From a virus: a stretch of 64,000 nucleotides of DNA. The notes beneath the pieces were generated by a model. The model made no database searches, was not told the origin of the DNA, and saw only the letters and a list, made by a program, of their open reading frames with translations. Location: IMG/VR virus record IMGVR_UViG_3300032304_000672, positions 39,696-103,695 of that record, one strand, 5' to 3'. Below are positions 1-19,025 of this stretch, piece by piece (position 1 is the first letter of the stretch; each line of letters starts with the position of its first letter). A program made the translations under genes and the position numbers.

Positions 1-128
1 ATCATATTATTGATACTACAGGTGTCCATGGAATTGCAGATACATCACAATTAGCCACACTTACTACAACAAATTCCCTAAATACCCGCCTTATCTCAAT
101 TGAGCTAGGCCTAGGGATATTTGATTAA
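1..128 (+). CDS. 3' end of a virion fibre-type protein (partial, not in ORF track)
   Basis: Frame 3 is open from the window edge: HIIDTTGVHGIADTSQLATLTTTNSLNTRLISIELGLGIFD*, TAA at 126-128. The DTT-VHGIADT motif is typical of actinophage fibre proteins (recognised from memory). Confidence 0.7.
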   Translation, partial: HIIDTTGVHGIADTSQLATLTTTNSLNTRLISIELGLGIFD

Positions 129-139
129 AACTTACAGAA

Positions 140-159
140 TGCTATAATACATTAGGAGA
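140..159 (+). promoter_or_regulatory. Extended -10 promoter (TGcTATAAT) and SD (AGGAG) for fibre gene 165
   Basis: aatgctataatacattaggagaaaaaaATG. Confidence 0.65.
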
Positions 160-164
160 AAAAA

Positions 165-2075
165 ATGCCAAATTATTCAAGTTTATCAACCCAGATCGAT
201 GCGATCAAGAGCGAAATATCATCCTCTCTCGCAGCATCTGCCTATTCCGCTCAAGATCTAGTATATGTAGCCAAAGCGCTACAAGCGCTAGGTTCAGTAG
301 TTGCACCAGATGGTGTATCTAACATTACAATTAACGACAATATTTATCTTGGCACAACAGCAGAAGCGTTTGCAACCACTGCTGCACTAACAAATCCTAA
401 TTTAGTAATTACTGTGAGCAAAGATGACTACGCACAAATAGCATTTTCAAATAGATCTTCAAATGCCAATGCATCAACAGATATCATTCTTTATTCAAAT
501 AATGGTAATGACGCATCTGGTTATATTGATATGGGTATTACATCTTCTAACTTTGCCGACCCAGACTTCACAGTTACTGGAAAGGGCGATGGCTATATAT
601 TTATGGTCGGAGCAGAAGCTGGCACAACAGATAGAGGAAACCTAGTATTTGCAACTTCAAATACTGGAACACAAAACAAAATTATTTTCGCTGCAGGAGG
701 ATTGGCTTCTGATAACGAACAAATGTCGATTACTCCAGATCAGAATGTGCATATCGAAATTGACACTCCGTCTACCTCACCTACAACTGGTGCACTGACT
801 GTAGTCGGCGGAGTTGGTATTTCTGGTGACGTTAACATCGACGGAACAATTACATTTGGCGGAGCGGGAACCACAGTAGAGACTTCAAACCTTGCAGTTA
901 CAGATCCTCTTATCTTTACAGGAAATGAAAACCAAGGAGATGCACTTGACCTAGGATTTGTTGGAGAATTTGCAAATCCAATTGCAACAATTACTAAGAC
1001 GGTTTCTAACAAGGCCCTTACATCTAACGTAGCAACACTTACTACATCAACAACCCACGGATTCTCCGTCGGAGACATTGCTGTTATCACAGGAGTGGAC
1101 GCAACATTCAATGGAACTTATTATGTAAAAGCAGTTCCTACAACTACAACATTTACATTTGATAAAACTAATGCTAACGTAACTTCAGCAGCAGCAACAG
1201 GCTCAGTCTCAGTATCAGGTCAACGCAGATTTGCGGCGGTAGCAAGAGATGCCTCTGACGGAGTCATTAAATTCTTAACAAACATTACAACAAAGCCTAC
1301 AACTACAATTAACTTTGCGGAGGCAGGAACAGTATACGCAGACATACTAGTAGATGATATTACAGCAGATGCAATTACTGCAACATCAGCCACAATTGGC
1401 GATGTATCAAATACAGAGCTACAGTATCTCAATAACGTATCTTCAAATATTCAAACACAGTTAGATGCTAAACTAGCATCAGCAACAGCGGCAACAACAT
1501 ATGCCCCTATTGCTTCTCCAACATTAACTGGAACACCATTATCAACAACAGCGGCAGTAGATACAAATACAACTCAAATTGCTACAACAGCATATGTAGT
1601 TGGACAAGGATATCTAAAGTCTGCTACAGCATCTTCAACATATGCACCATTAACAAATGCTAACCTTGTTAGCCCAGTTCTACAGTCTCCAGAAGAAGTA
1701 ATTACAGTAGCTGCAACTGCAGCAACTGGCACAATTAACGTAGATCTCGCAACATCTGCAATTCATTATTACACTGCAAACTCTTCAGCAGACTGGACAT
1801 TTAATTTTAGAGGAAATGGATCAACAACATTAAACTCTATGCTAAATGTTGGCGGAACAATATCAGTAGCATTTATGATTACAAATGGTGCTACTCCATA
1901 TAAGCCAGCAGCAACATCAGTTCAAGTAGATGGAGTTACAGTTACTCCTAAATGGAACGGTGGAACGGCACCTTCTACAGGAAATGCTAACTCAATAGAC
2001 GTTTATACATTTACAATTATTAAAACAGCATCAGCAACATATACTGTTCTTGGAACACAATCTAAGTTTGCATAG
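165..2075 (+). CDS. Virion fibre protein, paralog 1
   Basis: Thr/Ala/Ser-rich. Shares a core (YIDMGITS, GYIFM, NKIIFAAGG, NVHIEI.TPST...TGALTVVGGVG, RDASDG) with 5242 and 9062. Has an ~70-aa E1-FCCH-like module and a C-terminal 'W.GG.AP...N.ID.YTF' domain. Confidence 0.75.
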   Translation: MPNYSSLSTQIDAIKSEISSSLAASAYSAQDLVYVAKALQALGSVVAPDGVSNITINDNIYLGTTAEAFATTAALTNPNLVITVSKDDYAQIAFSNRSSNANASTDIILYSNNGNDASGYIDMGITSSNFADPDFTVTGKGDGYIFMVGAEAGTTDRGNLVFATSNTGTQNKIIFAAGGLASDNEQMSITPDQNVHIEIDTPSTSPTTGALTVVGGVGISGDVNIDGTITFGGAGTTVETSNLAVTDPLIFTGNENQGDALDLGFVGEFANPIATITKTVSNKALTSNVATLTTSTTHGFSVGDIAVITGVDATFNGTYYVKAVPTTTTFTFDKTNANVTSAAATGSVSVSGQRRFAAVARDASDGVIKFLTNITTKPTTTINFAEAGTVYADILVDDITADAITATSATIGDVSNTELQYLNNVSSNIQTQLDAKLASATAATTYAPIASPTLTGTPLSTTAAVDTNTTQIATTAYVVGQGYLKSATASSTYAPLTNANLVSPVLQSPEEVITVAATAATGTINVDLATSAIHYYTANSSADWTFNFRGNGSTTLNSMLNVGGTISVAFMITNGATPYKPAATSVQVDGVTVTPKWNGGTAPSTGNANSIDVYTFTIIKTASATYTVLGTQSKFA

Positions 2076-2084
2076 GGGGACTAA

Positions 2085-2948
2085 GTGCCAATAATTACAA
2101 CAATACGTGGCAATCTTAGGCCATTCGGTAAAAGAGCTACATTTTTAAGAGATTCAACAGGTGGAGATATTTCTACCGCTGGTTCTTATAGAGTACATAC
2201 TTTTTCCAGCATTGGCACTACAACTTTTAATGCAGGCGCAAATGGATCTGTAGAGGTTTTAGTTTTAGCTGGAGGAGGCTCTGGTGGCCCAGGCCAACCA
2301 GGATTTTGGGAAATTGGCGGTGGCGGTGGAGCAGGAGGATTAATTTATAATTCATCTGTTTCTGTTTCAGAAGGACCAATTACGGTTACAGTAGGAGACG
2401 GAGGGCTTGGTAAATCTGGCAATACAGGCGATGACCCAGGACTACCTGGACAAAACTCAGTATTCGGATCACTAACAGCAATTGGAGGCGGCGGAGGAGC
2501 AGCTAATTATTCAAGTACCAACCCAGCTTATGTTCCTTATATGAATGGAGGCTCAGGTGGTGGAGGACAAGGTAACTTTGCATCAGTCAGAGGATTAGGT
2601 ACTTCAGGACAAGGAAACAACGGAGGATTTTCTACAGCAAATGCAGATAACTCTGGCGCAGGCGGAGGAGGCGGAGCAGGAGCCGTTGGCAACAATGCTT
2701 CAGGCAACAGTGGCGGATCAGGTGGATCAGGTTTATCAGTATTTGGTACAACTTACGCAGGCGGAGGAGGAGGTTCACATTCTTCAAGTGGGAGTGGAAG
2801 TATGGGCGGAGGAGGCTCAGGAGGAGGCGGAGCAGGCGGAAACAACAATGGGACAGATGGACTCGGCGGTGGTGGCGGAGGAAATCGTGTTGGAAATAGA
2901 TCTGGCGACGGCGGATCTGGAGTAGTTATAGTAAGGTATATACCTTAG
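2085..2948 (+). CDS. Glycine-rich (polyglycine-II type) virion tip/adhesin protein 1, GTG start
   Basis: YRVHTF...VLVLAGGGSGG...GGGGGAGG...GGSGVVIVRY scaffold, with poly-Gly motifs separated by variable loops. Confidence 0.7.
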   Translation: MPIITTIRGNLRPFGKRATFLRDSTGGDISTAGSYRVHTFSSIGTTTFNAGANGSVEVLVLAGGGSGGPGQPGFWEIGGGGGAGGLIYNSSVSVSEGPITVTVGDGGLGKSGNTGDDPGLPGQNSVFGSLTAIGGGGGAANYSSTNPAYVPYMNGGSGGGGQGNFASVRGLGTSGQGNNGGFSTANADNSGAGGGGGAGAVGNNASGNSGGSGGSGLSVFGTTYAGGGGGSHSSSGSGSMGGGGSGGGGAGGNNNGTDGLGGGGGGNRVGNRSGDGGSGVVIVRYIP

Positions 2949-2951
2949 ATT

Positions 2952-3671
2952 TTAGTTAAATCTTTTTTTAACCCAATGATTTTTTTTATACCCACCCCAA
3001 AAATGTTTTCTTAATTTTTGTACGTAATGGGTTTGAGCATCTTCGTTATACTCATTAGACTCAGATCGCCACTCGTCCCTTTTAAAAGGAATTATTTGAT
3101 ACATAGGCGTTCCTATTGGAATAATCCCAGTAAAATTATTTTTTAATAAAAACGGAAGATTAGATCCTTCTTGAGATTGATTATAAGTATCACAATCAAT
3201 AATCCCAGATAAAGTATAAAAAGGTAAATCTGTTCTATTAAGTGGATGGGTTATAATAGCAGAGTAGCCTTTAGGAAGTTCTGGAATCCATACTGGATGC
3301 CACATCAATTCAAATTGATAGTACTCTGAAGGTATTGGAAGCTTATGTTTTCCTTGATTTCTAACCCCCATAATATCAGGCTTTGTTGGATATTGATAAG
3401 CAAATGCTTTCTGCTGATTGCCATTGTCATTTAATGATATATTTATCTCTTGCCAGGTTTCCTGGATATATCCCATAGATAAAGAGTCTAAAAATGGCAT
3501 ACACATTTTAATTGTTCTATCTGTGGTTCCAGAGCTATCAAAACTAGGCTTGCCATTTTGAAAAGCTGGTATATCCTTATACCAATCTGGCAAATACTCT
3601 CTAGATGGCCTAGGAGCTTTTACAGAAAGCTCAGTAAGCTTACTTACCGCATTAAACTTAATAATTTGCAT
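2952..3671 (-). CDS. Conserved phage protein, possible dUTPase-like beta-clip fold (DUF6065-like)
   Basis: Motifs LPDWYK, TIKMCMPFLD, PKGYS.IITHPLNR.DLPF..LSGIID.D, GTP.YQIIPFKR. It is the only convincing minus-strand gene in the window. Confidence 0.6.
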   Translation of the reverse strand: MQIIKFNAVSKLTELSVKAPRPSREYLPDWYKDIPAFQNGKPSFDSSGTTDRTIKMCMPFLDSLSMGYIQETWQEINISLNDNGNQQKAFAYQYPTKPDIMGVRNQGKHKLPIPSEYYQFELMWHPVWIPELPKGYSAIITHPLNRTDLPFYTLSGIIDCDTYNQSQEGSNLPFLLKNNFTGIIPIGTPMYQIIPFKRDEWRSESNEYNEDAQTHYVQKLRKHFWGGYKKNHWVKKRFN

Positions 3672-3697
3672 TTTTGCTCTTTTCTGAATAGTATAGT

Positions 3698-3740
3698 AAA
3701 CTATATCATATAGACCTTATAATTTCAATACCTGGAGGAA
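3698..3740. promoter_or_regulatory. Back-to-back divergent -10 elements
   Basis: Minus strand TGaTATAGT (complement of 3700-3708). Plus strand TATAAT at 3718-3723, followed by GGAGG before ATG 3743. Confidence 0.45.
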
Positions 3741-3742
3741 GC

Positions 3743-4243
3743 ATGTTAAACGTAACAAAAAATTTTTTATCAGAAAGCCATATTAATATCATATCAAAAC
3801 ATCAATCCTTAAATTCATTTTCAGCCACCCAGTCCGAAGATTTTGAAACAATTAAAGAGATAATTAGTCTAATAAAGAATAAAATTAATATAGATTTTTC
3901 TACTCTGGACCTATACCTTGAAAATGTGGGAATTAAAACAAATTTTGCTGGAGAATCTATCCCATTGCACTATGATGCTAGCGGCATCACCCTAGGCAGA
4001 AGAGAATATGCAGCACATCTTTATTTAAATAATGATTTTACTGGGGGAGAGATTTGCTATCCAAATCAAGAATTTAATGAAAAGCCAGAATGCAACACCC
4101 TAATTATATTCCCTACTACAGAAGAATACTCTCATGAAATGAAGACAATCCTTTCTGGCGAAAGAAGAGTAATGCTAATTCATTTTACTAGCAATAAAGA
4201 CCTAGCCTATACCCACAACATGGCTGGATATAGCTCAATCTAG
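3743..4243 (+). CDS. 2OG-Fe(II) oxygenase, prolyl-4-hydroxylase-like
   Basis: HxD (LHYD), YLNNDFTGGE, distal H (YSHE) and R (SGERR) facial-triad and 2OG-binding motifs. Confidence 0.85.
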   Translation: MLNVTKNFLSESHINIISKHQSLNSFSATQSEDFETIKEIISLIKNKINIDFSTLDLYLENVGIKTNFAGESIPLHYDASGITLGRREYAAHLYLNNDFTGGEICYPNQEFNEKPECNTLIIFPTTEEYSHEMKTILSGERRVMLIHFTSNKDLAYTHNMAGYSSI

Positions 4244-4283
4244 ACAGATGCAAATTTATCAAATATCGAGTATAATGTAAATT

Positions 4284-4655
4284 ATGGCTATCTCAAGACT
4301 AGCAACATCTAATCCAGCATCCAATACAGATATACTTTTGTATACTGGATCAAGAACTATTCTATCTTCAGTTATTGCTACAAATAAATCTTCAGATCCC
4401 GCCACAATTAGAGTATGGGTTGTCCCATTAGATCAGGATGCAACTGCTGCAAATCATGTATTTATTTCTTACAATGTATCAATTGGCGGAAACAACAGTC
4501 TTGAAACTTTTAGATTTCCAGTTTTAACTGGAGATAAAGTTTATGTGCGGGCATCAACAGCAGATATTTCATTTAGCCTTTCAGGTATAGATGATACAAC
4601 AGTTACTGGGCTTGAGTATGCGACCTTAGAGGCGCTTATTCTGGGCTTGGCATAG
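4284..4655 (+). CDS. Small beta-rich virion adaptor protein with hydrophobic C-terminal tail
   Basis: Homologous by eye to 10554 (LY...SS...N......IR.......A.NH....Y.V.I..N......L..GD.V.V.AS.AD.SF). Ends EALILGLA*. TATAAT lies 7 nt before ATG. Confidence 0.6.
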   Translation: MAISRLATSNPASNTDILLYTGSRTILSSVIATNKSSDPATIRVWVVPLDQDATAANHVFISYNVSIGGNNSLETFRFPVLTGDKVYVRASTADISFSLSGIDDTTVTGLEYATLEALILGLA

Positions 4656-4676
4656 GAGATATAGTATAATAACAAT

Positions 4677-4991
4677 ATGGCAAATTTCGGGAATGTAAAG
4701 TCAACTTCAGTAGGAACCTCGGCGGTAAACCTAAAGGTTGTAACTACCCCTACTCTTGTAACAGGATGTAATATTCTAAACAAGACTGGATCAACTGCCT
4801 CAATATCTCTTTATGTAACAAACACCTCAGTAGATTACTACATATTTAAAAACAAACAGATTGACGGAAATACAAATATAGAGGCAATAACAGGAAACAA
4901 GATTGTCCTAGTAAGTGGCGATACATTAAAGGCAATATCAGATGTTTCAGCCGCCTTTGATATAATTGTTTCTACATTGGACGGATTCTAA
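4677..4991 (+). CDS. Small beta-rich virion adaptor protein
   Basis: MANF...VGTS...N......V....YY..KN..I.......I.GNKIVL.SGD.L...SD....FD.IVS.L pattern, as seen in small proteins of phage fibre loci. TATAAT lies 6 nt before ATG. Confidence 0.6.
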   Translation: MANFGNVKSTSVGTSAVNLKVVTTPTLVTGCNILNKTGSTASISLYVTNTSVDYYIFKNKQIDGNTNIEAITGNKIVLVSGDTLKAISDVSAAFDIIVSTLDGF

Positions 4992-5242
4992 TGGCCACAA
5001 TATCTAACCCAAATGAGGTCTCAGACCTCAGCTTTGCAAATAACACATTTTATGGATTTAAGATTATTGCCAATACAGGCAAGTTCTACGTCCATGTAAT
5101 AAATGACGGGTCAACCGTAGAATTACCCGTAGATGACGTACTAAAAGATAATCAGTATAGAACTTGGATTTGGACCAAAAATACTGTACAATTTAGTTGG
5201 GACGGCACAAAGAAGACACACCTTAAGATGGAGATAAAATAA
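4991..5242 (+). CDS. Small virion/fibre-associated protein
   Basis: TAATG overlaps on both sides; contains an FYGF motif; 83 aa. Confidence 0.6.
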   Translation: MATISNPNEVSDLSFANNTFYGFKIIANTGKFYVHVINDGSTVELPVDDVLKDNQYRTWIWTKNTVQFSWDGTKKTHLKMEIK

Positions 5243-7659
5243 TGACACAAATTATAGATTTAGGCAAACTTAGATTTCACTGGGCAGACGCATGGAGTTC
5301 TTCCACAGAATACGAATTAAACGACGTAGTCAAATACGGTGGAAACGCATATGTTTACACAAACGCAGTAGCCACAACTAGCAACCTCCCAACTAATACC
5401 ACATATTGGAAAACAATGGTGGAAGGAATAAACTTCTTGGGTGCATACTCATCTAACACAGCATATAAGCCAGGAGACTCAGTAACACATGGTGCAAACC
5501 TTTATCTTTGCGAAAATCCATCAACTAGCAACACTCCCCCAAATGCAACATATTGGTCAAAGCTTGCAAGCGGAATTCAATATGAAGGATCATATAATGG
5601 AGGAACTCAATATGAAAAAGACGATATTGTGTCTTACGGCGGAAGCGTATATATTAGATTGCAAGATGGCGCAGGAAACCTTCCAACAGATGCTACACAT
5701 TGGGCAAAATTAGTAGACGGTACATATCCAGCACAAGCTGGCTTAACAAATTATATTTTAAAGACAGACGGTACAAACGTATCATGGACAAATGCCCCAA
5801 CATTAGATGATGCAACAATTGTTGACGATTTAATTGTAGGAGGAACAACATATGCTGGAAATGCTGCAGATAATTTTGATACTGACGCAGTATTAACTGG
5901 AGCACGAGCAGTATTTGATATGGACTCATCTCCATATGGACAGATTGCAGTACACAACTCAAACACAACTTCATCAACAGATGTTATTGCATATTCCGCA
6001 AATGGAGTAGATGCATCTGGTTGGATTGATATGGGTATCACTGGAGAAGATTTTAACCAGGCAACATTTGGAATTACAGGACCAAATGATGGATATATCT
6101 TTATGCAAGCCCCTGAAACATTTACAGAAACTGTAACAAACAAAGCATTAACAAACAACGTAGCGACACTAACTATTGGAGCAAACGACTTTAGAGTTGG
6201 AATGCCAGTAACCGTAACAGGCGTTGACGCAACATTTAACGGCACATATACAATTACAGCCAGAACATCTACAACATTTAGTTATGCAAAAACAGCATCT
6301 AACGTAACATCAACAGCGGCTTCAGGTACAGCAGTTGCTGGTAAAACAGGAGCAGGTAATTTAGTTCTTGCAACTGGCGCAAACGGTACAGATAATAAGA
6401 TTATATTTGCAGCAGGTGGATATGATTCTGGTAATGAGCAAATGAGCATTACCCCTGATGAAAACGTACATATTGAAATTGATACCCCTTCAACATCTGC
6501 TTCAACTGGAGCACTAACCGTAGTCGGAGGTGTCGGTGTACAGGGAGATATGAACGTCGCAGGAGATGTTTCTATCGTAGGTAACCTATCATTTGGCGGA
6601 GGATCAACAAGCGCAGAAAATCTAGCAGTTACAAACCCACTAGTATTCGTAGGAGATCAAAATAACGCAGATACTCAAGACTTAGGTCTTGTAGGAGAAT
6701 ATTCAGCTACAGTAACAGTTTCTACAGCTACAGTAAATAATAAAGCATTAACAAACAATGTTGCGACATTAACAACTGCAGCGGCACACAATTTCCTAGT
6801 AGGAGATAGAATAACAGTCGCTGGAGTAGATGCAACCTTCAATGGTACATATGCACTAACAGCAATTCCAACAGCCACAACATTTAGCTATGCCAAAACA
6901 GCATCAAATGTAACTTCAGCAGCAGTATCGCCAACAGGAACAGCAGATGCTGTAACTCGTAGAGAGTTTGCTGGAGCAGTAAGAGATGCCTCAGATGGAG
7001 TATTTAAATTTTTCCAGGATGCAGTCACAAAGCCATCATCCACAGTTAACTTTGCAGAGGCAGGATTAACATATGCTCCTATTAGAGTAAAAGACATTAC
7101 TGCAGATCAAATTACTGGCTCAGGAAACCTTGCAGTCGGCACAGATAAGCTAACAGTAAATGCTTCAACAGGTGCAGTTGGAATGGCTGGAGCTCTAACT
7201 ACAACAGGACTAATCACAGCAAATGGTGGACTAACTACATCAGGAGCATTAACAGTATCAGGTGGAGCAACATTTACTGGAACAACAGATGTTCAAGAAC
7301 TTCGTGAAAATGTAGTTGATGTAACATTATCTTCAAATGCAGGAACATTAGATTGGACTGCAGGAAATATTTATTATATTGCAACAGCACCAACTGGAAA
7401 CATGACTTATAACCTAACAAATCTTCCTGCAACTAATTCAAAGATTATGACCATAAACGTACTTGTTACACAAGGTGCAACTGGTTATATTCCATCTACC
7501 TTCCAAATTGGTGGAGCATCACAAACAATTCGCTGGGCTGGTGGAAGTGCACCAACCCCAACATCTTCAGCAGGAAAGATTGATATATTTAACTTTACCC
7601 TACAAAGAACTACTGCTGGGGCATGGATAGTATACGCAACATCATCCCTAAATTTCTAA
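5242..7659 (+). CDS. Virion fibre protein, paralog 2, with N-terminal CBM5/12-like repeats
   Basis: Three repeats of W/Y...T.Y...D.V.YGG..Y.......P.....YW, then the shared fibre core, two FCCH-like modules and a C-terminal 'WAGG.APT...KIDIFNF' domain. Confidence 0.75.
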   Translation: MTQIIDLGKLRFHWADAWSSSTEYELNDVVKYGGNAYVYTNAVATTSNLPTNTTYWKTMVEGINFLGAYSSNTAYKPGDSVTHGANLYLCENPSTSNTPPNATYWSKLASGIQYEGSYNGGTQYEKDDIVSYGGSVYIRLQDGAGNLPTDATHWAKLVDGTYPAQAGLTNYILKTDGTNVSWTNAPTLDDATIVDDLIVGGTTYAGNAADNFDTDAVLTGARAVFDMDSSPYGQIAVHNSNTTSSTDVIAYSANGVDASGWIDMGITGEDFNQATFGITGPNDGYIFMQAPETFTETVTNKALTNNVATLTIGANDFRVGMPVTVTGVDATFNGTYTITARTSTTFSYAKTASNVTSTAASGTAVAGKTGAGNLVLATGANGTDNKIIFAAGGYDSGNEQMSITPDENVHIEIDTPSTSASTGALTVVGGVGVQGDMNVAGDVSIVGNLSFGGGSTSAENLAVTNPLVFVGDQNNADTQDLGLVGEYSATVTVSTATVNNKALTNNVATLTTAAAHNFLVGDRITVAGVDATFNGTYALTAIPTATTFSYAKTASNVTSAAVSPTGTADAVTRREFAGAVRDASDGVFKFFQDAVTKPSSTVNFAEAGLTYAPIRVKDITADQITGSGNLAVGTDKLTVNASTGAVGMAGALTTTGLITANGGLTTSGALTVSGGATFTGTTDVQELRENVVDVTLSSNAGTLDWTAGNIYYIATAPTGNMTYNLTNLPATNSKIMTINVLVTQGATGYIPSTFQIGGASQTIRWAGGSAPTPTSSAGKIDIFNFTLQRTTAGAWIVYATSSLNF

Positions 7660-7669
7660 GGAGAAATAA

Positions 7670-8464
7670 ATGCCATTTATTAGCAGCGTAAGAGGTTCAC
7701 ATGGTGCACAAAGTAGACTGCGTGGATTTATCCCAACAATTTCAAATTCTACTGGCGGAACAATTACAAATTCTGGTGCATATAGAATACATACATTTAC
7801 TACAATTGGAAACTCAACACTTACTTTATCAGGAGCTGGAACTGTTGAGTATTTAATTCTCGCAGGCGGCGGTGGCGGCGGATCTGACGGAGATGTTGGC
7901 GGCGGAGGAGGAGCAGGAGGTCTTCTTTCTGGAAGCGTATCTCTTTCTGCAGCAAACTACACTATAACTGTAGGAGATGGAGGAATAGCAGGCAGCACTA
8001 CCGCTTGGGGTGGTTCAGATTTTTCTGGCACAGGTGCTGGAACTAATGGAACTCAAGGAAACAATTCTATTTTTAATGGTTTAACTGCAATTGGCGGAGG
8101 TTACGGAGGTACTCGTGAGGCGGCTGGAGGTAACGGTGGCTCGGGAGGCGGCGGTGGAGACAACTCTAAGCCTGGAGGCTCAGGAACAGCGGGTCAGGGA
8201 AATCGTGGTGGAGATGGACCAGGAATGAATACCCAAGGTGGGCAAGACTCAGGTGGTGGTGGTGGTGCGGGAAGCGCAGCCTCATTTAATAATCCAGGAT
8301 CAGGACTTGCAAATTCAATTTCTGGAAACTCAGTTACTTACGCTGCAGGCGGCAGAGGAATTCAGCTAAATACGGCGCAGGCTGCTGCAAACAACACTGG
8401 AAATGGTGGCCCTGGAGTTCGTAAAGGTGGATCTGGTGTAGTAATAGTTCGTTACACAATATAA
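7670..8464 (+). CDS. Glycine-rich virion tip/adhesin protein 2
   Basis: Same scaffold as 2085 (STGG.I...G.YR.HTF..IG; GGSGVVIVRY). SD AAGGAG. Confidence 0.7.
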   Translation: MPFISSVRGSHGAQSRLRGFIPTISNSTGGTITNSGAYRIHTFTTIGNSTLTLSGAGTVEYLILAGGGGGGSDGDVGGGGGAGGLLSGSVSLSAANYTITVGDGGIAGSTTAWGGSDFSGTGAGTNGTQGNNSIFNGLTAIGGGYGGTREAAGGNGGSGGGGGDNSKPGGSGTAGQGNRGGDGPGMNTQGGQDSGGGGGAGSAASFNNPGSGLANSISGNSVTYAAGGRGIQLNTAQAAANNTGNGGPGVRKGGSGVVIVRYTI

Positions 8465-8480
8465 CAGAAAAGAATTAACA

Positions 8481-8864
8481 TTGAGATTTAAATCAACACA
8501 AAATATATTTAAAGATTTTGGCGAAGTGTTTGAACAATCATGGATGGACTCTAACAAAGTTGGTATGCCACCAAAAACAGAATGGGATTATTCTCGCCAA
8601 CTACAAATTGAAGATGTAGATATTTGGGAAGTTATTTATGAACAAGGCGGAGCAGTAGGAGTATATGCTGCATGGTCTCCATATGCTGAATTCTATATGG
8701 TAAGAGTTGGCTGGCAAAAAGAAGCTGAAGGTTATGGAGTTGAAACATATTATGGTCCAGGGGCACAAAAACAAGTACAGAATAGAATGCGTGAAATGAA
8801 CATTCCTTTTAGCGTTAATCAAACATGGGTAGAGCCAGAAGATATGTGGTTATATACAAATTGA
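8481..8864 (+). CDS. Hypothetical phage protein (TTG start)
   Basis: 127-aa ORF filling the gap; aromatic-rich motifs WDYSR...IEDVDIWEVIYE...GVYAAW.PYAEFY. Confidence 0.6.
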   Translation: MRFKSTQNIFKDFGEVFEQSWMDSNKVGMPPKTEWDYSRQLQIEDVDIWEVIYEQGGAVGVYAAWSPYAEFYMVRVGWQKEAEGYGVETYYGPGAQKQVQNRMREMNIPFSVNQTWVEPEDMWLYTN

Positions 8865-8878
8865 GGTATAATTAAACC

Positions 8879-9025
8879 ATGCCTGGATACTTGACTAATA
8901 GATATATTACCTTGAACCCCGCCGCCGATGTTCAGACGGTAACAACAAGCGTAACAACCCTTGCCTCAAGAGTAACTGAGGCGGAAGCAAGCATAGATGA
9001 TCTTAGCCTTAATATAGGCGTTTAA
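8879..9025 (+). CDS. 48-aa small protein (not in ORF track)
   Basis: MPGYLTNRYITLNPAADVQTVTTSVTTLASRVTEAEASIDDLSLNIGV*. TATAAT at 8867-8872 lies 6 nt before ATG. The ORF fills the intergenic gap. Confidence 0.7.
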   Translation: MPGYLTNRYITLNPAADVQTVTTSVTTLASRVTEAEASIDDLSLNIGV

Positions 9026-9061
9026 ACCTACTTAATGCTATAATTTCAGAAGGAGATACAC

Positions 9062-10552
9062 ATGGCACTTACAACAGAAATTGGTTTAGTTAAAACGGAA
9101 ATAGCTTCATCGCTAGCCGCTTCTCTATATACCGCAAAAGATTTAGTATACGTAGCAAAGGCGATTGAAGCCCTAGCAAATGCAGAGACAACAACTGGAG
9201 TCTTTGAGACAGTCGATGTAAACTCTCTTCTATATGTTGGCCCAAATGCAGACACATTTAATACAGCGGCGGGACTAACAAATCCTGTAATCGTTGCACA
9301 GATATCAAATAATGATTATGCTCAAATAGCATTTAAGAATACCAGCTCAGGCACAAACGCCTCAACAGACTTTATTGCATACTCAAACAATGGAACAGAC
9401 TCAGATGGATACATTGATATGGGTATTACTTCACAAAACTTTTCAGACCCAGATTTTACTATTACAGGAGCTGGCGATGGATATATATTTATGGTCGGTG
9501 CCGCAGGCGGAGCAGATAAGGGTAACTTAGTACTTGCTACATCCGATACAGGTTCACAAAACAAAATTATTTTCGCAGCAGGTGGCTTAGCATCTGATGA
9601 TACTCAAATGGTTATTACTCCAAATCAGAATGTACATATTGAAATTCCAACCCCCTCAACATCACCAACTACTGGTGCATTAACAGTTGTCGGTGGCGTA
9701 GGTATATCTGGCGATATTAATATTGCTGGTAACGTAACATTTGGTGGAACAGGAACTACTCTTGAAACATCTACTCTTGCAGTAGCAGATCCACTAATAT
9801 TCGTAGGTAATGATAATATTACAGATGCCGTAGACCTAGGACTAATTACAGAATATGGCACAGCATTAGCTTCAACACTAACAGGAACAATTACAAATAA
9901 AGCATTGACTTCAAATGTAGCAACACTTACAACTGGAGCAACTCATGGATTTGCAATCGGAGACATTGTAGTAGTAGCTTCAGTAGATGCAACATTTAAC
10001 GGAACACATGTAGTTAAAGCAGTTCCAACAACAACAACTTTCACATTTGATAAGACAAACGCTAACGTAACTTCAGCGGCAGTTAGCCCAGCAGGAACAT
10101 TCTCAGCGTCAACAAAACGCAGATTCGCAGGAGCAGTAAGAGATGCCTCAGATGGAGTAATTAAAGTATTTAAAGATGCTACAACTAAACCATCTGGCAC
10201 AGTTAACTTCTCAGAAAGCGGACTTGCATTTGCAGATATGAGAATGGCAGGACTAACAGCATCTTCAATTACAGTCGGAGATGTATCAAACACAGAATTT
10301 GGATATTTGAACGGTGTTACAAGTGCCATTCAAACACAGCTAGATGCTAAAGCCGTATATCCATCACAAACTTCTAACAGTGGTAAATATCTTACTACTG
10401 ACGGAAGCGCAACATCTTGGGCAACGGTAGATGCCCTTCCAGCACAAGCAAATAATTCTGGATATTATCTAACCACAAATGGTACAGCGGCATCATGGGC
10501 AGCACTTGTCACTGATCCGAATCCACAAATATTCATGATGATGGGAGCATAA
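9062..10552 (+). CDS. Virion fibre protein, paralog 3
   Basis: N-terminus and core homologous to 165. Two P.Q..NSG.YLTT.G.A.SWA repeats. Ends DPNPQIFMMMGA*. TGCTATAAT and AAGGAG upstream. Confidence 0.75.
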   Translation: MALTTEIGLVKTEIASSLAASLYTAKDLVYVAKAIEALANAETTTGVFETVDVNSLLYVGPNADTFNTAAGLTNPVIVAQISNNDYAQIAFKNTSSGTNASTDFIAYSNNGTDSDGYIDMGITSQNFSDPDFTITGAGDGYIFMVGAAGGADKGNLVLATSDTGSQNKIIFAAGGLASDDTQMVITPNQNVHIEIPTPSTSPTTGALTVVGGVGISGDINIAGNVTFGGTGTTLETSTLAVADPLIFVGNDNITDAVDLGLITEYGTALASTLTGTITNKALTSNVATLTTGATHGFAIGDIVVVASVDATFNGTHVVKAVPTTTTFTFDKTNANVTSAAVSPAGTFSASTKRRFAGAVRDASDGVIKVFKDATTKPSGTVNFSESGLAFADMRMAGLTASSITVGDVSNTEFGYLNGVTSAIQTQLDAKAVYPSQTSNSGKYLTTDGSATSWATVDALPAQANNSGYYLTTNGTAASWAALVTDPNPQIFMMMGA

Positions 10553-10553
10553 C

Positions 10554-10886
10554 ATGCCAACAACTTATAAGGTACTAGGAAGAAAAGCTTCAGCGGCTAC
10601 AACAATGGAAGAACTCTATGCAGTTCCTTCATCTACTTCAGCAGTAATTTCAACAATTACAGTATGCAATAGAGCGGCGGCAGCAAGAACATACAGAATT
10701 GCAATCAAGCCAGCAACAGGAACAACATTAGCAAACGAACACTATGTAGCTTATGATGTAACAATTGCAGCAAATGACACAACTGCTTTGACACTTGGTC
10801 TAACACTTGCAACAGGTAATTCAATTCAAGTATACGCATCTGCAGCAGATTTAACTTTCCAGGCTTTCGGCTCAGAGATATCGTAA
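10554..10886 (+). CDS. Small beta-rich virion adaptor protein
   Basis: MPTTYKVLG...LYAVPSSTSAVISTITVCN...HYVAYD...FQAFGSEIS, a recurrent family in phage fibre loci. Confidence 0.65.
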   Translation: MPTTYKVLGRKASAATTMEELYAVPSSTSAVISTITVCNRAAAARTYRIAIKPATGTTLANEHYVAYDVTIAANDTTALTLGLTLATGNSIQVYASAADLTFQAFGSEIS

Positions 10887-10901
10887 TAGGAGGAATAGTT
10901 A

Positions 10902-11789
10902 ATGACTGTTTCTCGTTTTAATAAATCAACAGTTAAAACTGGTAATCCAAAATATAATACTTTTAATGATAGTGTTATTCCTGCAAATGGAGTAGAGGTA
11001 TTAATCGTCGGCGGCGGAGGCGGCGGAGGATTTGCAGCAGGCGGAGGCGGCGGAGGCGGCGGGGTCGTATATCTTCCTTTATATCAGGTAGCTTTAGGAC
11101 AAACATATAGCGTAATTGTTGGCGGTGGACAAGCGGGCGCAACTACCTATCCACAAACACTTAGCAATGGGCAAAATAGTTCATTTGATAACATAATTGC
11201 ATATGGTGGTGGAAGCGGTGCAGGGTACACGGGAAATGGTAACTCATCCGCAACAGGCGGAGGATCAGGAGGATCTGGAAGCGGAACGAACGGATCTAGC
11301 AGTTATCAAAATCAAGGATTCGATGGAGGTTTTGGAAGAAACGTTGGCGGCGGCGGAGGCGGCGGCGCAGGAGGACCTGGGCAAAGCCCCTTGGTAACTA
11401 CTGGAATGGCAAATATGGCAGGATCTGGTGGTCCTGGAGTTTTATTTTATGAAAATTATTATGGCGGCGGAGGCGGCGGTGGTGGATTTAATCCTGCAAC
11501 CTATCCAGCAAATGGCGGAGTTGGAGGCGGTGGCGCAGGAGGAGTTGCAACAGATTCTGGCGCAGAATCACCTGCACCAACTCCTGGGACAAATGGACTA
11601 GGCGGCGGAGGCGGCGGTGGTGGAGGATCGAAAAATGGAGCAGCAGGTGGTAATGGAACCGTGATAATAGTTTATCCTATTTCACAACGTGCAGCGATTG
11701 CTACAACAGGAACAGTTAACATCACAACATATAGCGGTGGAACAAAACGTGCATATATATTTACATCAACTGGGAGTATAACTTTCTAA
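10902..11789 (+). CDS. Glycine-rich virion tip/adhesin protein 3
   Basis: VEVLIVGGGGGGG...GGNGTVIIVY scaffold; SD AGGAGG. Confidence 0.7.
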   Translation: MTVSRFNKSTVKTGNPKYNTFNDSVIPANGVEVLIVGGGGGGGFAAGGGGGGGGVVYLPLYQVALGQTYSVIVGGGQAGATTYPQTLSNGQNSSFDNIIAYGGGSGAGYTGNGNSSATGGGSGGSGSGTNGSSSYQNQGFDGGFGRNVGGGGGGGAGGPGQSPLVTTGMANMAGSGGPGVLFYENYYGGGGGGGGFNPATYPANGGVGGGGAGGVATDSGAESPAPTPGTNGLGGGGGGGGGSKNGAAGGNGTVIIVYPISQRAAIATTGTVNITTYSGGTKRAYIFTSTGSITF

Positions 11790-12709
11790 TGACAAAATCA
11801 TTTTCTACATCATCAATTAATTCTTTAATAAATCTTTCTTCTTTTAAAGATAAAATTTACGCAACTGGCGGTAATCAAGTTATTGATATTAATAATTTTA
11901 GATATCATGTATTTACAAGCGTAGGTTTGAATTCTTTTCAAGTTTTGTCTGGAAAACAAAGCGTGGAAGTAATGATGTGTGGCGGTGGTGGTGCTGGAGG
12001 ATACAGAATCGGCGGCGGTGGCGGTGGCGGAGAGTTAAAGTTATTCACAGCAACAACATTAAATCAAGGAGTATATCAAGTTATTGTAGGATACGGAGGT
12101 TTAAGAGGCACTGGTAGTAACGGGATAAAAAATAATGGTGGATCTTCCAGGCTTATAAAAGATTCAACAATTATTTTGTCGGCTTTAGGAGGCGGCGCTG
12201 GTGGCACACAAGGAAATGGTGATGGAAACACTGGAGGCTCTGGCGGCGGAGCGAACGAATGGTCGCTTACTGGAACTGGTGGAAAACCAGGCCTTGCTGT
12301 TGGATCTAATACAAATGCTGGTGGAGATTCAAGGACTAATCCCTGGGCAGGCGGTGGCGGTGGCGGAGTAACTGCTTCTGGTTCTTCAGCTTTTCCACTA
12401 GGAGGAAACGGCGGCGGAGGCGGCTCGGGAATTGTGTTAACAAATGTAGATTCAAATTTTACATCAGGAAATTTTTCAACATTTTCTGGAATGACAGTAA
12501 TTTGTTCTGGAGGTGGCGGAGGTTCTTATAATTCAGGCACAACTGGTGGACCTGGTGGCACTGGTGCAGGATCTGGAGGAACCCCTAGCGTTGTCGCTAC
12601 AAGCGCAACTTCTTTTGGCTCTGGCGGCGGTGGCGGCGGCGGAGATCAAGGTGGAGCACTTGGTTCAAGTGGGTACCAAGGTATTGTAGTTATTAAATAT
12701 TCTTTATAG
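11789..12709 (+). CDS. Glycine-rich virion tip/adhesin protein 4
   Basis: ATGG...FRYHVFT...VEVMMCGGGGAGG...GYQGIVVIKY scaffold; TAATG overlap. Confidence 0.7.
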   Translation: MTKSFSTSSINSLINLSSFKDKIYATGGNQVIDINNFRYHVFTSVGLNSFQVLSGKQSVEVMMCGGGGAGGYRIGGGGGGGELKLFTATTLNQGVYQVIVGYGGLRGTGSNGIKNNGGSSRLIKDSTIILSALGGGAGGTQGNGDGNTGGSGGGANEWSLTGTGGKPGLAVGSNTNAGGDSRTNPWAGGGGGGVTASGSSAFPLGGNGGGGGSGIVLTNVDSNFTSGNFSTFSGMTVICSGGGGGSYNSGTTGGPGGTGAGSGGTPSVVATSATSFGSGGGGGGGDQGGALGSSGYQGIVVIKYSL

Positions 12710-12724
12710 TAGTATAATAATATT

Positions 12725-14470
12725 ATGAGTTATCAACTGAAGGTAATTAAAGATTATCCGATTGGCTTTTGGCCGTTGGATGAATCTTCGGGTACCACCG
12801 CTTCTGATATTTCAGGATGTGGAAATAACGCTACTTATGTAGGATCACCTGCATCAAACATGTTACCAATTATTCCAGGCGGCGGATCAGGAACTAAGAT
12901 AACCAATACTGCTTATATAACAGTACCAACATCAAAAGACTTTTATGGCTCATCCGTTTCAAACGGACTAGGCAATAAATACTCTTCAGACAACGACTTC
13001 ACACTAGAATTATGGGTAAGCCCATCTATTCAGTCATCCACCCTAACCACACTGTTTGCAGACACTACAGACAAGATCGGTTTATATTGGGAAAAAGGCG
13101 ATGTTCTATTTAAGGTTACAGATACAGAACAAATTAGGTGGGCTGTAACATATAGCAAAAAGGCAATGCACATTGTAGGAATATATTCCGTAAACTCTAT
13201 TTCTTTATATATTGATGGAACTCAAGTAGCAACTAAAACTATAGACTCTAATTTTAAATTTACTAACACATCTTTAGACTTACAGATAGGACCAACATCA
13301 GATGCTGGAGATTCTTTTGTAGTAGATGCACCAGCAGTATATCGATATGGATTAAATGCGGCATCTATTAATAGACACTACAACGATGCCAATTATTACA
13401 TTCAGCCAATACATGTTGTTAACCCAGAAGAGGGAGTGTTATTTTCCTGCTCTGATAGAACAAATAAAATAGATTTTAGCTACACCTATGGAGTAGATGC
13501 AACATGGGATAGCTTTTTAGATTCAAATACTTACTATGACGATAAGGGAAAGTATATTGGATTTATTCCAACTGCCACCTCTGAATCAAAGTCATCGGTA
13601 ATTACTGATTTCTTGTTTATTCCAATGGAGTCGGGCTTTGTAGATTCTAAAATTGAATGGCGTAATGAATTAGGGATAACAGTAGAAACTAGCGTAGATG
13701 GAACTACTTACTCAACTTGCGTAAATGGAGAATCAATTCCACAATATAAAAAGGGCAGCTTCGGTACAAGCGGACTCCTATATATTAAAATTACTATGGC
13801 TACTACAGATGCCAGCAAGTTCTTGCCAAGATTATCATATTTCTCAATTAGATTTTATAGTCAGTCTAGAGTTTATGCAGATAACTTTAATAGTTATATT
13901 GAATCTAACAATCAATTCGCAATAGGATCTCTAAATTATTCCCCACTTCTAAGACATTACAATAATGGAATTAGACCAAATTCAGGATATGGATTTAATA
14001 TCAATACTGGATTAAATATAAATACAGTAGAGATGTTTTTTACTCCTAAAACAACTGGAGCAAATACTTTATTTAGCCATGCAGCATCAGGCACTAAGTA
14101 TGCCTGGAATGGGTCTGGCGTGGTCTCTAAGGCCTCTATAAGCAAAGTTTATATCAATGGGGTAGATAAGACCTCACAGACCAATATAAGCAATTTCCTG
14201 GTGGCTGGAGAGCCTCATCATATAGTCCTTGTATTTACTTCAGCAATAACTGGAGTCCTTCGGTTTAATTATGAAACTTCAGGCGGGCCAGATAATCTAT
14301 ACAATAACATAGCAATATATAATAGAACGCTTACTCAGGCAGATGTTACCGCCCACTTTGATTTATATTGTGGCAGACCAACCTCTACAATCACTGATCC
14401 TGTAATTGACCTGACAGAATTATCTCCTGAATATTACGATAATGACTGGGTCGTTATCCAAAGCGTCTAA
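12725..14470 (+). CDS. LamG/concanavalin A-like domain virion protein
   Basis: PIGFWPLDESSGTTA.D.SG, FTLELW, HIVGIY...ISLYIDG; second LamG-like half near the C-terminus (PHHIVLVF). Confidence 0.75.
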   Translation: MSYQLKVIKDYPIGFWPLDESSGTTASDISGCGNNATYVGSPASNMLPIIPGGGSGTKITNTAYITVPTSKDFYGSSVSNGLGNKYSSDNDFTLELWVSPSIQSSTLTTLFADTTDKIGLYWEKGDVLFKVTDTEQIRWAVTYSKKAMHIVGIYSVNSISLYIDGTQVATKTIDSNFKFTNTSLDLQIGPTSDAGDSFVVDAPAVYRYGLNAASINRHYNDANYYIQPIHVVNPEEGVLFSCSDRTNKIDFSYTYGVDATWDSFLDSNTYYDDKGKYIGFIPTATSESKSSVITDFLFIPMESGFVDSKIEWRNELGITVETSVDGTTYSTCVNGESIPQYKKGSFGTSGLLYIKITMATTDASKFLPRLSYFSIRFYSQSRVYADNFNSYIESNNQFAIGSLNYSPLLRHYNNGIRPNSGYGFNINTGLNINTVEMFFTPKTTGANTLFSHAASGTKYAWNGSGVVSKASISKVYINGVDKTSQTNISNFLVAGEPHHIVLVFTSAITGVLRFNYETSGGPDNLYNNIAIYNRTLTQADVTAHFDLYCGRPTSTITDPVIDLTELSPEYYDNDWVVIQSV

Positions 14471-14880: not shown

Positions 14881-16461
14881 ATGCAATTTATGGAAGACGA
14901 CGACTCAGCAGATATTTCAATTTCTAACATGGCGGATTGGATGAAGTTTAATACTCCAACACAATCAACAAGCAATGATCCTTTCAAGATTGAAGGAGAA
15001 GAGCTAACTAAAGTCTCAGGACTTGGTGCAACATTCCGTCGTAAAATGAATCGTGATCTTCAAAAGAGATTTCAAGGAATTGAAGGAACAGAGACTCAGC
15101 AGAACCTGCTTGCACAGGCAATTACAGGCTATGCAATGTTCGATCTTATTGAACCTCCATATAACTTAGATTATCTTTCTCGTATTTATGAAATTTCTCC
15201 ATATAACTATGCAGCAATTAATGCTAAAGTTTCTAATATCGTAGGCCTAGGCCACGACTTTGTAGAAACAAGAAAAACAAATGAAGCTTTCGATAATATT
15301 ACAGATGACAAGTCTTTAGAACGTGCACGACGTAAACTTAATAGACTACGTCAAGATCTATATGAGTGGTTAGAGCAGTGCAACGAAGAAGAAACATTTA
15401 CAGAAACATTAATAAAAGCTTACACAGATGTTGAATCTACAGGAAATGGCTATATCGAAATTGGCAGAACATCTGCTGGAAAGATTGGCTATATCGGACA
15501 TATTCCAGCAAAGACAATGCGTGTGCGTCGCCTACGTGATGGCTTTATTCAATTGCTTTACGGCAAGGCAGTTTACTTCCGTAACTTTGGAGATCAAGAT
15601 ACACCGAATCCGATTGATGGCGGACTAGAGAGACCAAATGAGATTATTCATTTAAAGAAGTACACTCCAACAAATAACTATTATGGTATTCCAGATATCG
15701 TAGCGTCTTCAAATGCTATGGCTGGAAACGAGTTTGCTGGCAAGTACAACCTTGATTACTTTGAGAATAAGGCGGTCCCAAGATACATTATCACAGTAAA
15801 GGGAGCTAAATTATCTACAGAGTCAGAGCGTAAGCTCCTTGAATTTTTCCAGGTTGGCCTAAGAGGAAAGAATCACAGATCCCTATATATTCCGCTTCCA
15901 CCAGATTCACCAGACTCAAAGGTTGAATTTAAGATGGAGCCAATTGAGGCAGGAACTCAGGAGTCCTCATTTAACGTGTATCGTAAATCTAATAGAGATG
16001 AAATCCTATTATCTCACCGTGTCCCAATTAATAAAATTGGAACTCCAGAAGGAGTTAATTTAGCGGTAGCAAGAGATGCCGATAAAACATTTAGAGAGCA
16101 AGTATGTCGTCCAGCTCAAATGAATTTAGAAAAGAAATTAAATAAAATTATTGAAGAGATGACCGATGCCCTATTACTTAAATTTAATGAGCTTACTTTG
16201 ACCGATGAGGATACTCAATCCAAGATCGATGAGCGATATTTGAGAATGCAGGTAATTACCCCTAATGAAGTTAGAATTAGAATGGGTATGGTTCCAATTG
16301 ATGGTGGAGATAAAGTCGTAGAATTAAAGCCACAAGCTGCAGCAGAACAAAGAGCCCAAGCAGGGCAGACCAGAACCAGAGATTCTGAAAGGTCTGCAAA
16401 TTCACCAGATATTTCTGGAGAGGGCAGAAATGCTCAGGGCGACGGAAGACAAGTCAACTGA
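14881..16461 (+). CDS. Portal protein (HK97/PBSX-type)
   Basis: GNGYIEI.R, NEIIH.K.YTP...YYGIP, YFEN.AVP, RDEIL..HRVP, ITPNEVR motifs; position before the protease and capsid genes. Confidence 0.92.
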   Translation: MQFMEDDDSADISISNMADWMKFNTPTQSTSNDPFKIEGEELTKVSGLGATFRRKMNRDLQKRFQGIEGTETQQNLLAQAITGYAMFDLIEPPYNLDYLSRIYEISPYNYAAINAKVSNIVGLGHDFVETRKTNEAFDNITDDKSLERARRKLNRLRQDLYEWLEQCNEEETFTETLIKAYTDVESTGNGYIEIGRTSAGKIGYIGHIPAKTMRVRRLRDGFIQLLYGKAVYFRNFGDQDTPNPIDGGLERPNEIIHLKKYTPTNNYYGIPDIVASSNAMAGNEFAGKYNLDYFENKAVPRYIITVKGAKLSTESERKLLEFFQVGLRGKNHRSLYIPLPPDSPDSKVEFKMEPIEAGTQESSFNVYRKSNRDEILLSHRVPINKIGTPEGVNLAVARDADKTFREQVCRPAQMNLEKKLNKIIEEMTDALLLKFNELTLTDEDTQSKIDERYLRMQVITPNEVRIRMGMVPIDGGDKVVELKPQAAAEQRAQAGQTRTRDSERSANSPDISGEGRNAQGDGRQVN

Positions 16462-18979: not shown

Positions 18980-19025
18980 AATTTAGTAATGCTATAATTG
19001 TTTAGAGTAGAAATAGGAGATTTAC

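Follow-up and report, generated by a model that had tools for sequence, protein, structure and literature searches.

The window analysed here is a 64,000-nucleotide stretch covering bases 39,696–103,695 of a 103,695-bp phage genome with direct terminal repeats (IMG/VR record IMGVR_UViG_3300032304_000672), and it opens inside a fibre locus of an uncultured siphophage, a phage of the long-tailed kind. Together with the ~7 kb directly upstream, this locus is judged, with a confidence slightly above even, to hold several multi-gene cassettes for serially assembled modular fibres with three joints that lie across gene boundaries. Each fibre would be joined end to end from separately encoded segments, the distal pieces being adhesins. 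In the first joint (J1) a hydrophobic C-terminal peptide or stub (..WWLGA, ..IFMMMGA, ..ALILGLA), carried on a flexible Gly/Ser or collagen-like linker, would be taken up by the N-terminal domain of the next protein, a β-fold named SBP. In the second (J2) a C-terminal extension (EXT, ending ..ELGLGIFD or ..DDLSLNIGV) would pair with the N-terminal segment EI.SSLAAS..DLVYVAKA of a core fibre, and in the third (J3) the fibre end-domain CX would hold a ~16-residue N-terminal peptide, MP(F/L/I)x(S/T)(S/T)xRGxxG, of a distal adhesin that often would be a TNF-like plus polyglycine receptor-binding protein. Physical binding between the paired halves is inferred, and so is the equation of gene order with assembly order. 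Recombination is proposed to break inside genes, with selection keeping both halves of a joint together while tips are swapped; recombination that spares the joints in this way would give rise to the pattern in which the C-terminus of one protein predicts the N-terminus of the next.

Evidence from related contigs

The gene-boundary rules were examined in 73 related viral contigs retrieved with an alignment of the three fibres, in which open reading frames (ORFs) were called crudely and classified by hidden Markov models made from the modules of this genome. Across these contigs the rules far exceed chance, with Fisher values of 3e-59 and 1e-64 that are uncorrected for relatedness. A preliminary description of the locus had reported the three couplings from the window and proposed to look for co-occurrence of C-terminal class and downstream N-terminal class in related contigs. 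All three are present in the window, and the co-occurrence goes well beyond the two examples per pair that were visible there. Positions preceded by w refer to the window and those preceded by L003 to the record of the same locus that extends upstream. The cassette features are as follows.

1–128, plus strand: SBP jelly-roll domain with a 47-aa (amino acid) C-terminal extension (EXT) ending ELGLGIFD; 3′ end of the 152-aa gene L003:11365-11823
129–164, plus strand: conserved junction with an extended -10-like TAATGCTATAAT and a GGAGA ribosome-binding site; this block recurs at 9026–9061
165–2075, plus strand: fibre 1, 636 aa, with NA helix (165–314), CORE and CX end-domain (1674–2072)
2085–2948, plus strand: Gly_rich_2 adhesin 1, 287 aa, GTG start, with N-peptide VPIITTIRGNLRPFG (2085–2132) and then a TNF-like plus polyglycine domain
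4284–4655, plus strand: 123-aa SBP paralogue that itself ends in a hydrophobic stub, EALILGLA (4629–4652)
4677–4991, plus strand: SBP paralogue, 104 aa, in a tandem pair with w4284; fused SBP-SBP forms occur elsewhere
4991–5242, plus strand: 83-aa protein of the P83 family
5242–7659, plus strand: fibre 2, 805 aa, with CBM5/12-like NB N-terminus, CORE with one inserted repeat, and CX (~7264–7656)
7670–8464, plus strand: Gly_rich_2 adhesin 2, 264 aa, with N-peptide MPFISSVRGSHGAQ
8879–9025, plus strand: 48-aa mini-protein consisting of EXT only, MPGYLTNR...DDLSLNIGV; ORF kept in at least 10 related loci
9062–10552, plus strand: fibre 3, 496 aa, with NA helix, CORE, CY tail and stub QIFMMMGA (10526–10549); the ribosome-binding site (GGAG) for the following gene is contained in its last codons
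10554–10886, plus strand: SBP, 110 aa; its 85%-identical L010 orthologue was modelled as an 8-strand jelly roll with a predicted local distance difference test score (pLDDT) above 90
10902–11789, plus strand: Gly_rich_2 protein 3, 295 aa; an SBP-Gly_rich fusion occurs elsewhere (P0061)
11789–12709, plus strand: Gly_rich_2 protein 4, 306 aa

For J1, 55 proteins of the 73 contigs end in a hydrophobic stub. In 54 of them the next gene encodes an SBP, the 55th being a truncated SBP, compared with 39 of 816 for non-stub proteins of the same contigs. The stub is preceded by Gly/Ser runs or collagen G-X-Y repeats and is found on proteins of 73–838 aa. The window examples are EALILGLA (w4284), followed by the 104-aa β-protein, and QIFMMMGA (w9062), followed by the 110-aa β-protein; the first of these stub bearers is itself a member of the SBP family. 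A third case in the same genome lies at L003:10623-11363, whose product ends in SWFLGA and is followed by the 152-aa SBP-EXT gene. An out-of-sample test was made with a generic stub pattern fixed beforehand, on loci fetched with unrelated queries and with no contig in common with the first set, and here stubs were followed by SBP in 9 of 13 cases as against 2 of 170 for non-stub proteins, both of which were near-stubs (p = 7e-11). In a further locus (L077) a protein ending in ..NAWWLGV lies directly ahead of a 528-aa fibre headed by SBP. When the proteins with stubs were clustered by single linkage, collagen and WFD..YYDG..W motifs common to them drew most into one group, and the clusters were uninformative. 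The end of the stub gene and the start of the SBP gene can be dual coding in the form TTA GGA GCN TAA N ATG (window 10540–10556, L003:11351-11367 and related loci), and the SBP gene is then translationally coupled. Frameshifting or stop read-through joining adjacent genes as a general rule was rejected, because with gaps of 0, 1, 3 and 8–36 nt many loci have the two partners out of frame with each other.

J3 connects a CX fibre with a protein that starts MP(F/L/I)x(S/T/E/N)(S/T)x(R/G) in 59 of 63 dereplicated cases, with gaps of ~4–24 nt between the CX gene and the adhesin gene, compared with 20 of 677 other proteins; in the remaining four cases the ORF downstream departs from the motif only when it is applied strictly from the start codon as called. 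In the window w165 is followed by w2085, which starts (V)PIITTIRG from a GTG codon, and w5242 by w7670, which starts MPFISSVRG. The fibre motif given earlier as W.GG.AP...ID corresponds to a real domain, CX, in which the gap before ID spans 7–8 residues rather than 3. The MP-peptide heads Gly_rich_2 proteins or members of at least 14 other families (as grouped by BLAST) of 102–970 aa. There are two co-varying subclasses, in which fibres ending ..KFA go with MP(L/I)(L/I)(E/T)T and fibres ending ..LNF with MPF(I/V)(S/N)S.RG. The residues of the peptide are fixed, yet the codons behind them differ at third positions and even in the family used for serine; judged by these codons the MP-peptide is under selection at the protein level.

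J2 holds for every NA fibre (EI.SSLAAS N-terminus) of the 73 contigs, each of which is preceded by a gene ending in EXT, and again two subclasses, with EXT ends ..ELGLGIFD and ..DDLSLNIGV, co-vary with their partners. In the window the NA fibres w165 and w9062 (EI.SSLAAS.Y.A.DLVYVAKA..AL) follow ends LGLGIFD (w3-128) and LSLNIGV (w8879-9025), respectively. The first of these had been placed in a gene at 1–128; its LGLGIFD end was correctly read, and the ORF is the 3′ end of the 152-aa SBP-family gene. The 48-aa w8879 protein is a homologue of the extension alone, and EXT is probably helical. An identical extended -10-like TAATGCTATAAT box with a ribosome-binding site is found at 137–148, 9033–9044 and 18987–18998, ahead of w165, w9062 and the 133-aa gene w19026, and these boxes are candidate late promoters. 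In some relatives the J2 junction measures only 8 nt and has no box.

Mosaic fibres and their adhesins

The three fibres are mosaics. As the preliminary description had noted, w9062 resembles w165 in N-terminus and core and differs in its tail; the shared NA helix and core show 66% identity over 435 aa. w5242 carries the same core (~60% identity to w9062, 43% to w165) behind the CBM5/12-like N-terminus, and shares with w165 the ~130-aa C-terminal end-domain CX, which corresponds to phrog_5906. In the contigs three kinds of tail (stub, CX and a third) occur behind one and the same MALTTEIG N-terminus, and which gene lies downstream goes each time with the tail. A P83 protein is followed by an NB fibre in 37/37 dereplicated cases. 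Bodies are exchanged on both sides of the joints while the joint stays whole, and the comparison supports the view that terminal modules are interchangeable units that move together with the cognate end of the neighbour.

The four Gly-rich proteins all match Gly_rich_2 (PF21722) at 86 (w2085), 56 (w7670), 79 (w10902) and 51 bits (w11789), with a cut-off of 24.3. The modelled Gly-rich domain (model residues 170–424) superimposes onto gp24, the tail fibre of cyanophage Pam3 (7ypx_A; Z 15.2, root-mean-square deviation 3.0, 185 aligned), and onto a tail-tip chain of mycobacteriophage Bxb1 (9d93_Qa; Z 15.2, 191 aligned), with an identity of 28–32% to both, and the next, unrelated matches have Z ≤8. 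By sequence, w2085 had no match at E ≤0.01 among solved structures, gp38 included. In Pam3 the receptor-binding tip consists of this TNF-like plus polyglycine module, which resembles the S16 gp38 adhesin seated on the gp37 fibre (PMC9608196), and in Bxb1 polyglycine domains are located on the central tail fibre (PMC13252515).

The SBP jelly-roll family

SBP is a large, unannotated family of ~105-aa β-proteins represented in this genome by w4284, w4677, w10554 and the first 105 residues of the 152-aa protein at L003:11365-11823. AlphaFold2 models it as a jelly roll of eight strands (pLDDT >90). Among solved structures the closest in fold are the capsid cement protein of KHP40 (7dou, Z 10.4, 107 residues aligned) and the turret of HFTV1 (8qpg, Z 9.4), both matching over the whole domain with an identity of only 10–14%, followed by subunits of Ena pili (7a02, Z 8.8, as well as 9i0y and 8pdz). 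With a fold as common as the jelly roll, all of these serve as leads only. No Pfam match was obtained for SBP, EXT or P83 proteins, and this includes the tail-fibre assembly protein families.

A HMMER scan recovered 3,900 SBP clusters at 50% identity, 869 of them at E ≤1e-10. In the 150 best representatives, SBP is part of a longer protein in 94, forms the whole protein in 36 and is in tandem in 20; in nearly all of the 94 it occupies the N-terminus from residue 1. It is fused to fibres with Peptidase_G2 or S74 intramolecular-chaperone domains, to collagen, to the Gly_rich domain (P0061), to RCC1 repeats (P0005) and to the core repeats found in the fibres of this phage. The combinations SBP-Gly-rich, SBP-extension and SBP with a body ending in a stub occur both split and fused. 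Stubs end 17 of the 114 SBP representatives longer than 135 aa (94 longer and 20 tandem proteins) compared with 6 of 489 background ORFs, and stub ends on proteins headed by SBP mean that link proteins with a socket at one end and a plug at the other exist (e.g. P0015). It is tentatively proposed, as a possibility rather short of probable, that the capture of a hydrophobic peptide, borne at a C-terminus behind a linker that is flexible or collagen-like, by an N-terminal jelly roll is a widespread, so far unannotated joint which links fibre segments and adhesins like the links of a chain, with tips exchangeable by recombination at the joints. In P0003, P0004 and P0007 two ~80-aa NKALT.NVATLTT..HG..VGD repeats, the same as those of the fibre core of this phage, lie between the first β-strand of SBP and the rest of the jelly roll.

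Alternative explanations

The cassette fibres are most likely tail fibres. The preliminary description had suggested head fibres on account of the position of the locus upstream of the portal, and this would make SBP a trimeric capsid cement or decoration protein; the proposal concerns location and is compatible with docking. The best solved neighbours of SBP are indeed the cement and turret proteins, the locus adjoins the portal here and follows ORFs of major-capsid-protein size in loci L010 and L035, and the C-terminus of a 400-aa fibre encoded upstream matches a head-decoration PHROG. However, jelly rolls are very common and a Z of ~10 is little above the usual background of 7–8. In PHROGs the fibres match tail-fibre families, SBP heads fibres whose Peptidase_S74 or G2 domains are of tail type, and the homologues of the Gly-rich domain are situated on tail fibres and tail tips (PMC13252515). 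A tail location is thus more likely, and the head location unlikely.

The docking model has also to be weighed against co-inheritance alone, according to which tandem block duplication, together with the closeness of adjacent ends and their overlapping translation and transcription signals, would link the ends without any docking. Several observations count in its favour or against physical joints. Every pair in the window is a paralogous block, so that pairs within one genome are not independent, and the motif patterns were written after the first data set had been viewed, its loci being mutually related. At the end of the stub, TTA GGA G(C/T)N doubles as the ribosome-binding site, AGGAG, for the SBP gene downstream; these Leu/Met-Gly-Ala/Val codons hold the Shine-Dalgarno sequence, which means that part of the peptide motif is constrained as RNA. 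Likewise the EXT–NA junction contains a conserved TGCTATAAT box, and some of its conservation is therefore at the nucleotide level. SBPs of the w4284 type lack an upstream stub yet bear one of their own and form an exception class. In two monomeric AlphaFold2 read-through fusions, stub-SBP and CX-w2085, with the stop replaced by Gly and a forced short linker, neither the stub nor the MP-peptide formed a strand and both had pLDDT <50, although in the second model the Gly-rich domain was mostly above 90 and CX at ~77–91. Such monomeric fusions are a weak test and speak neither for nor against binding at a trimer interface. CX, as taken from that model, gave only weak matches to solved structures (Z ≤6.5) with no clear relative.

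Co-inheritance does not readily account for the remaining observations. The MP-peptide residues are kept through synonymous change, and HPFLFG(V/T)I stubs obey the J1 rule across 24–43-nt spacers where the ribosome-binding site does not overlap. The bodies on both sides are swapped with the joint intact, the rule holds again in phage contigs that were retrieved separately and are all absent from the first set, and the fused forms place the partners in one structure. Co-inheritance alone is hence considered quite unlikely. Of the earlier idea of interchangeable docking pairs, the interchangeability is borne out by tails, bodies and fused or split forms, whereas docking found no support in the two fusion models. 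Module shuffling and the fused and split forms also fit the idea that gene order mirrors assembly order, which is retained by inference.

A third possibility, that SBP, SBP-EXT and MP-peptide proteins are assembly chaperones which bind the fibre C-terminus and are then released, like T4 gp38, Mu Tfa and Pam3 gp25, is distinctly improbable: their genes do lie directly downstream of fibres and are often translationally coupled, collagen-like fibres do end in a bare stub with no trimerisation domain of their own, and the β-sandwich and probably helical C-terminal extension of SBP-EXT do match the layout of Pam3 gp25 (PMC9608196), but SBP is N-terminal on fibres of up to 1,429 aa, some with their own intramolecular chaperone domains, the Gly-rich bodies fold as a receptor-binding tip and not as a chaperone, and none of the proteins matches a tail-fibre assembly family in Pfam.

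Relation to known fibre systems

The long tail fibre of T4 is assembled end to end from the products of adjacent genes, gp34-gp35-gp36-gp37, in gene order. The proposed cassettes would share this logic with unrelated proteins, and the T4 fibre has neither a jelly-roll adaptor nor a hydrophobic C-terminal stub. A closer parallel is offered by gp37 and gp38 of T2 and S16, where the adhesin gene likewise directly follows the fibre gene and gp38 combines a short N-terminal attachment part with a glycine-rich lattice and variable tips that are exchanged as modules (PMC9608196, PMC12032242). In contrast to gp38, which has a helical domain for this purpose, attachment here would be by a peptide of ~16 residues, and this peptide is found at the head of many bodies that are not glycine-rich as well. 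Solved gp38 gave no match in sequence, CX and gp37 are unrelated, and the phage is a siphophage. Pam3 gp24 and the Bxb1 minor tail proteins share the TNF-like plus polyglycine fold of the Gly_rich_2 proteins as described above, but gp24 docks to the baseplate by its own long helical N-terminus, whereas here a separate short protein follows a long fibre.

In Klebsiella phages a second receptor-binding protein is attached via a conserved N-terminal peptide to a branching domain of the first, which has been validated experimentally (PMC6872550, PMC13352976). Here too a short conserved N-terminal peptide on a variable protein would be paired with a domain of the first protein, as an exchangeable pair. 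The sequences are different, the joint is placed at the C-terminal end of the fibre, and so is serial rather than a side branch, and the phages belong to an uncultured group. A branching domain of the T4gp10 kind was not recognised, CX within the fusion model having matched only at the Z given above. The Ena appendages of Bacillus endospores consist of small jelly rolls whose fold is similar to that of SBP, and there too a terminal peptide connects one subunit to the next. This likeness is at the level of the fold only, and unlike the stub the Ena connector is N-terminal and disulfide-linked, and Ena is not of phage origin. Tfa and Pam3 gp25 are stand-alone accessory proteins, from which SBP differs in being an N-terminal domain of longer proteins in the majority of the best representatives counted above.

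The particular joints, above all the pairing of a C-terminal stub with an N-terminal jelly roll, as well as the size of the SBP family and the close packing of so many joints into a single locus, appear to be undescribed in Pfam, PHROGs, solved structures and the literature examined. Conserved joints with variable tips are already known from T-even and Klebsiella phages, and the present proposal would be an extension of this concept, not a new one. If the joints are true docking pairs, fibre loci that now consist mostly of "hypothetical proteins" could be read by a grammar throughout a large group of phages without cultured members, and this grammar would tell proximal proteins, adaptors and receptor-binding tips apart. 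SBP would then be a new family of N-terminal attachment domains, accompanied by a new terminal-peptide motif, and both could improve annotation and the inference of host range from metagenomes.

Other genes of the locus and its surroundings

The fibre locus is flanked by a ribonucleotide reductase gene and the portal gene. After the portal come a protease (w16515), a capsid or virion structural protein (w17854) and a tape measure protein of 2,125 aa (w23787), followed by minor tail proteins. A megablast search of the locus against isolated phages found none that share it, and the sole match in a tblastn search with fibre 3 was a ~80-aa repeat domain in Microbacterium phages. The remaining features within and beside the cassettes are the following.

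2952–3671, minus strand: 239-aa protein, phrog_7084, function unassigned; recurs beside oxygenase genes in related fibre loci
3743–4243, plus strand: 2OG-Fe(II) oxygenase (PF13640) within the fibre locus
8481–8864, plus strand: 127-aa protein of the P127 family, no match to a known family
12725–14470, plus strand: 581-aa Laminin_G_3 (concanavalin-like lectin) protein
14881–16461, plus strand: portal protein, start of the head module

The Laminin_G_3 gene closes the third cassette, after two Gly-rich genes and just ahead of the head genes, and its product may be a further distal binding module. Upstream of the window, L003:4570-8383 encodes the 400-aa fibre mentioned above, an 84-aa protein and a 515-aa protein. 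The last of these contains tail-fibre repeats and ends in LNSWVVLGDLSA; in relatives a similar type of end is followed by proteins that start MPLLLG. A second 2OG-Fe(II) oxygenase gene is located at L003:8387-9004, and both oxygenases and the phrog_7084 protein recur in related loci. As many partner fibres of the relatives contain collagen G-X-Y repeats, the oxygenases could be candidate fibre-modifying hydroxylases.

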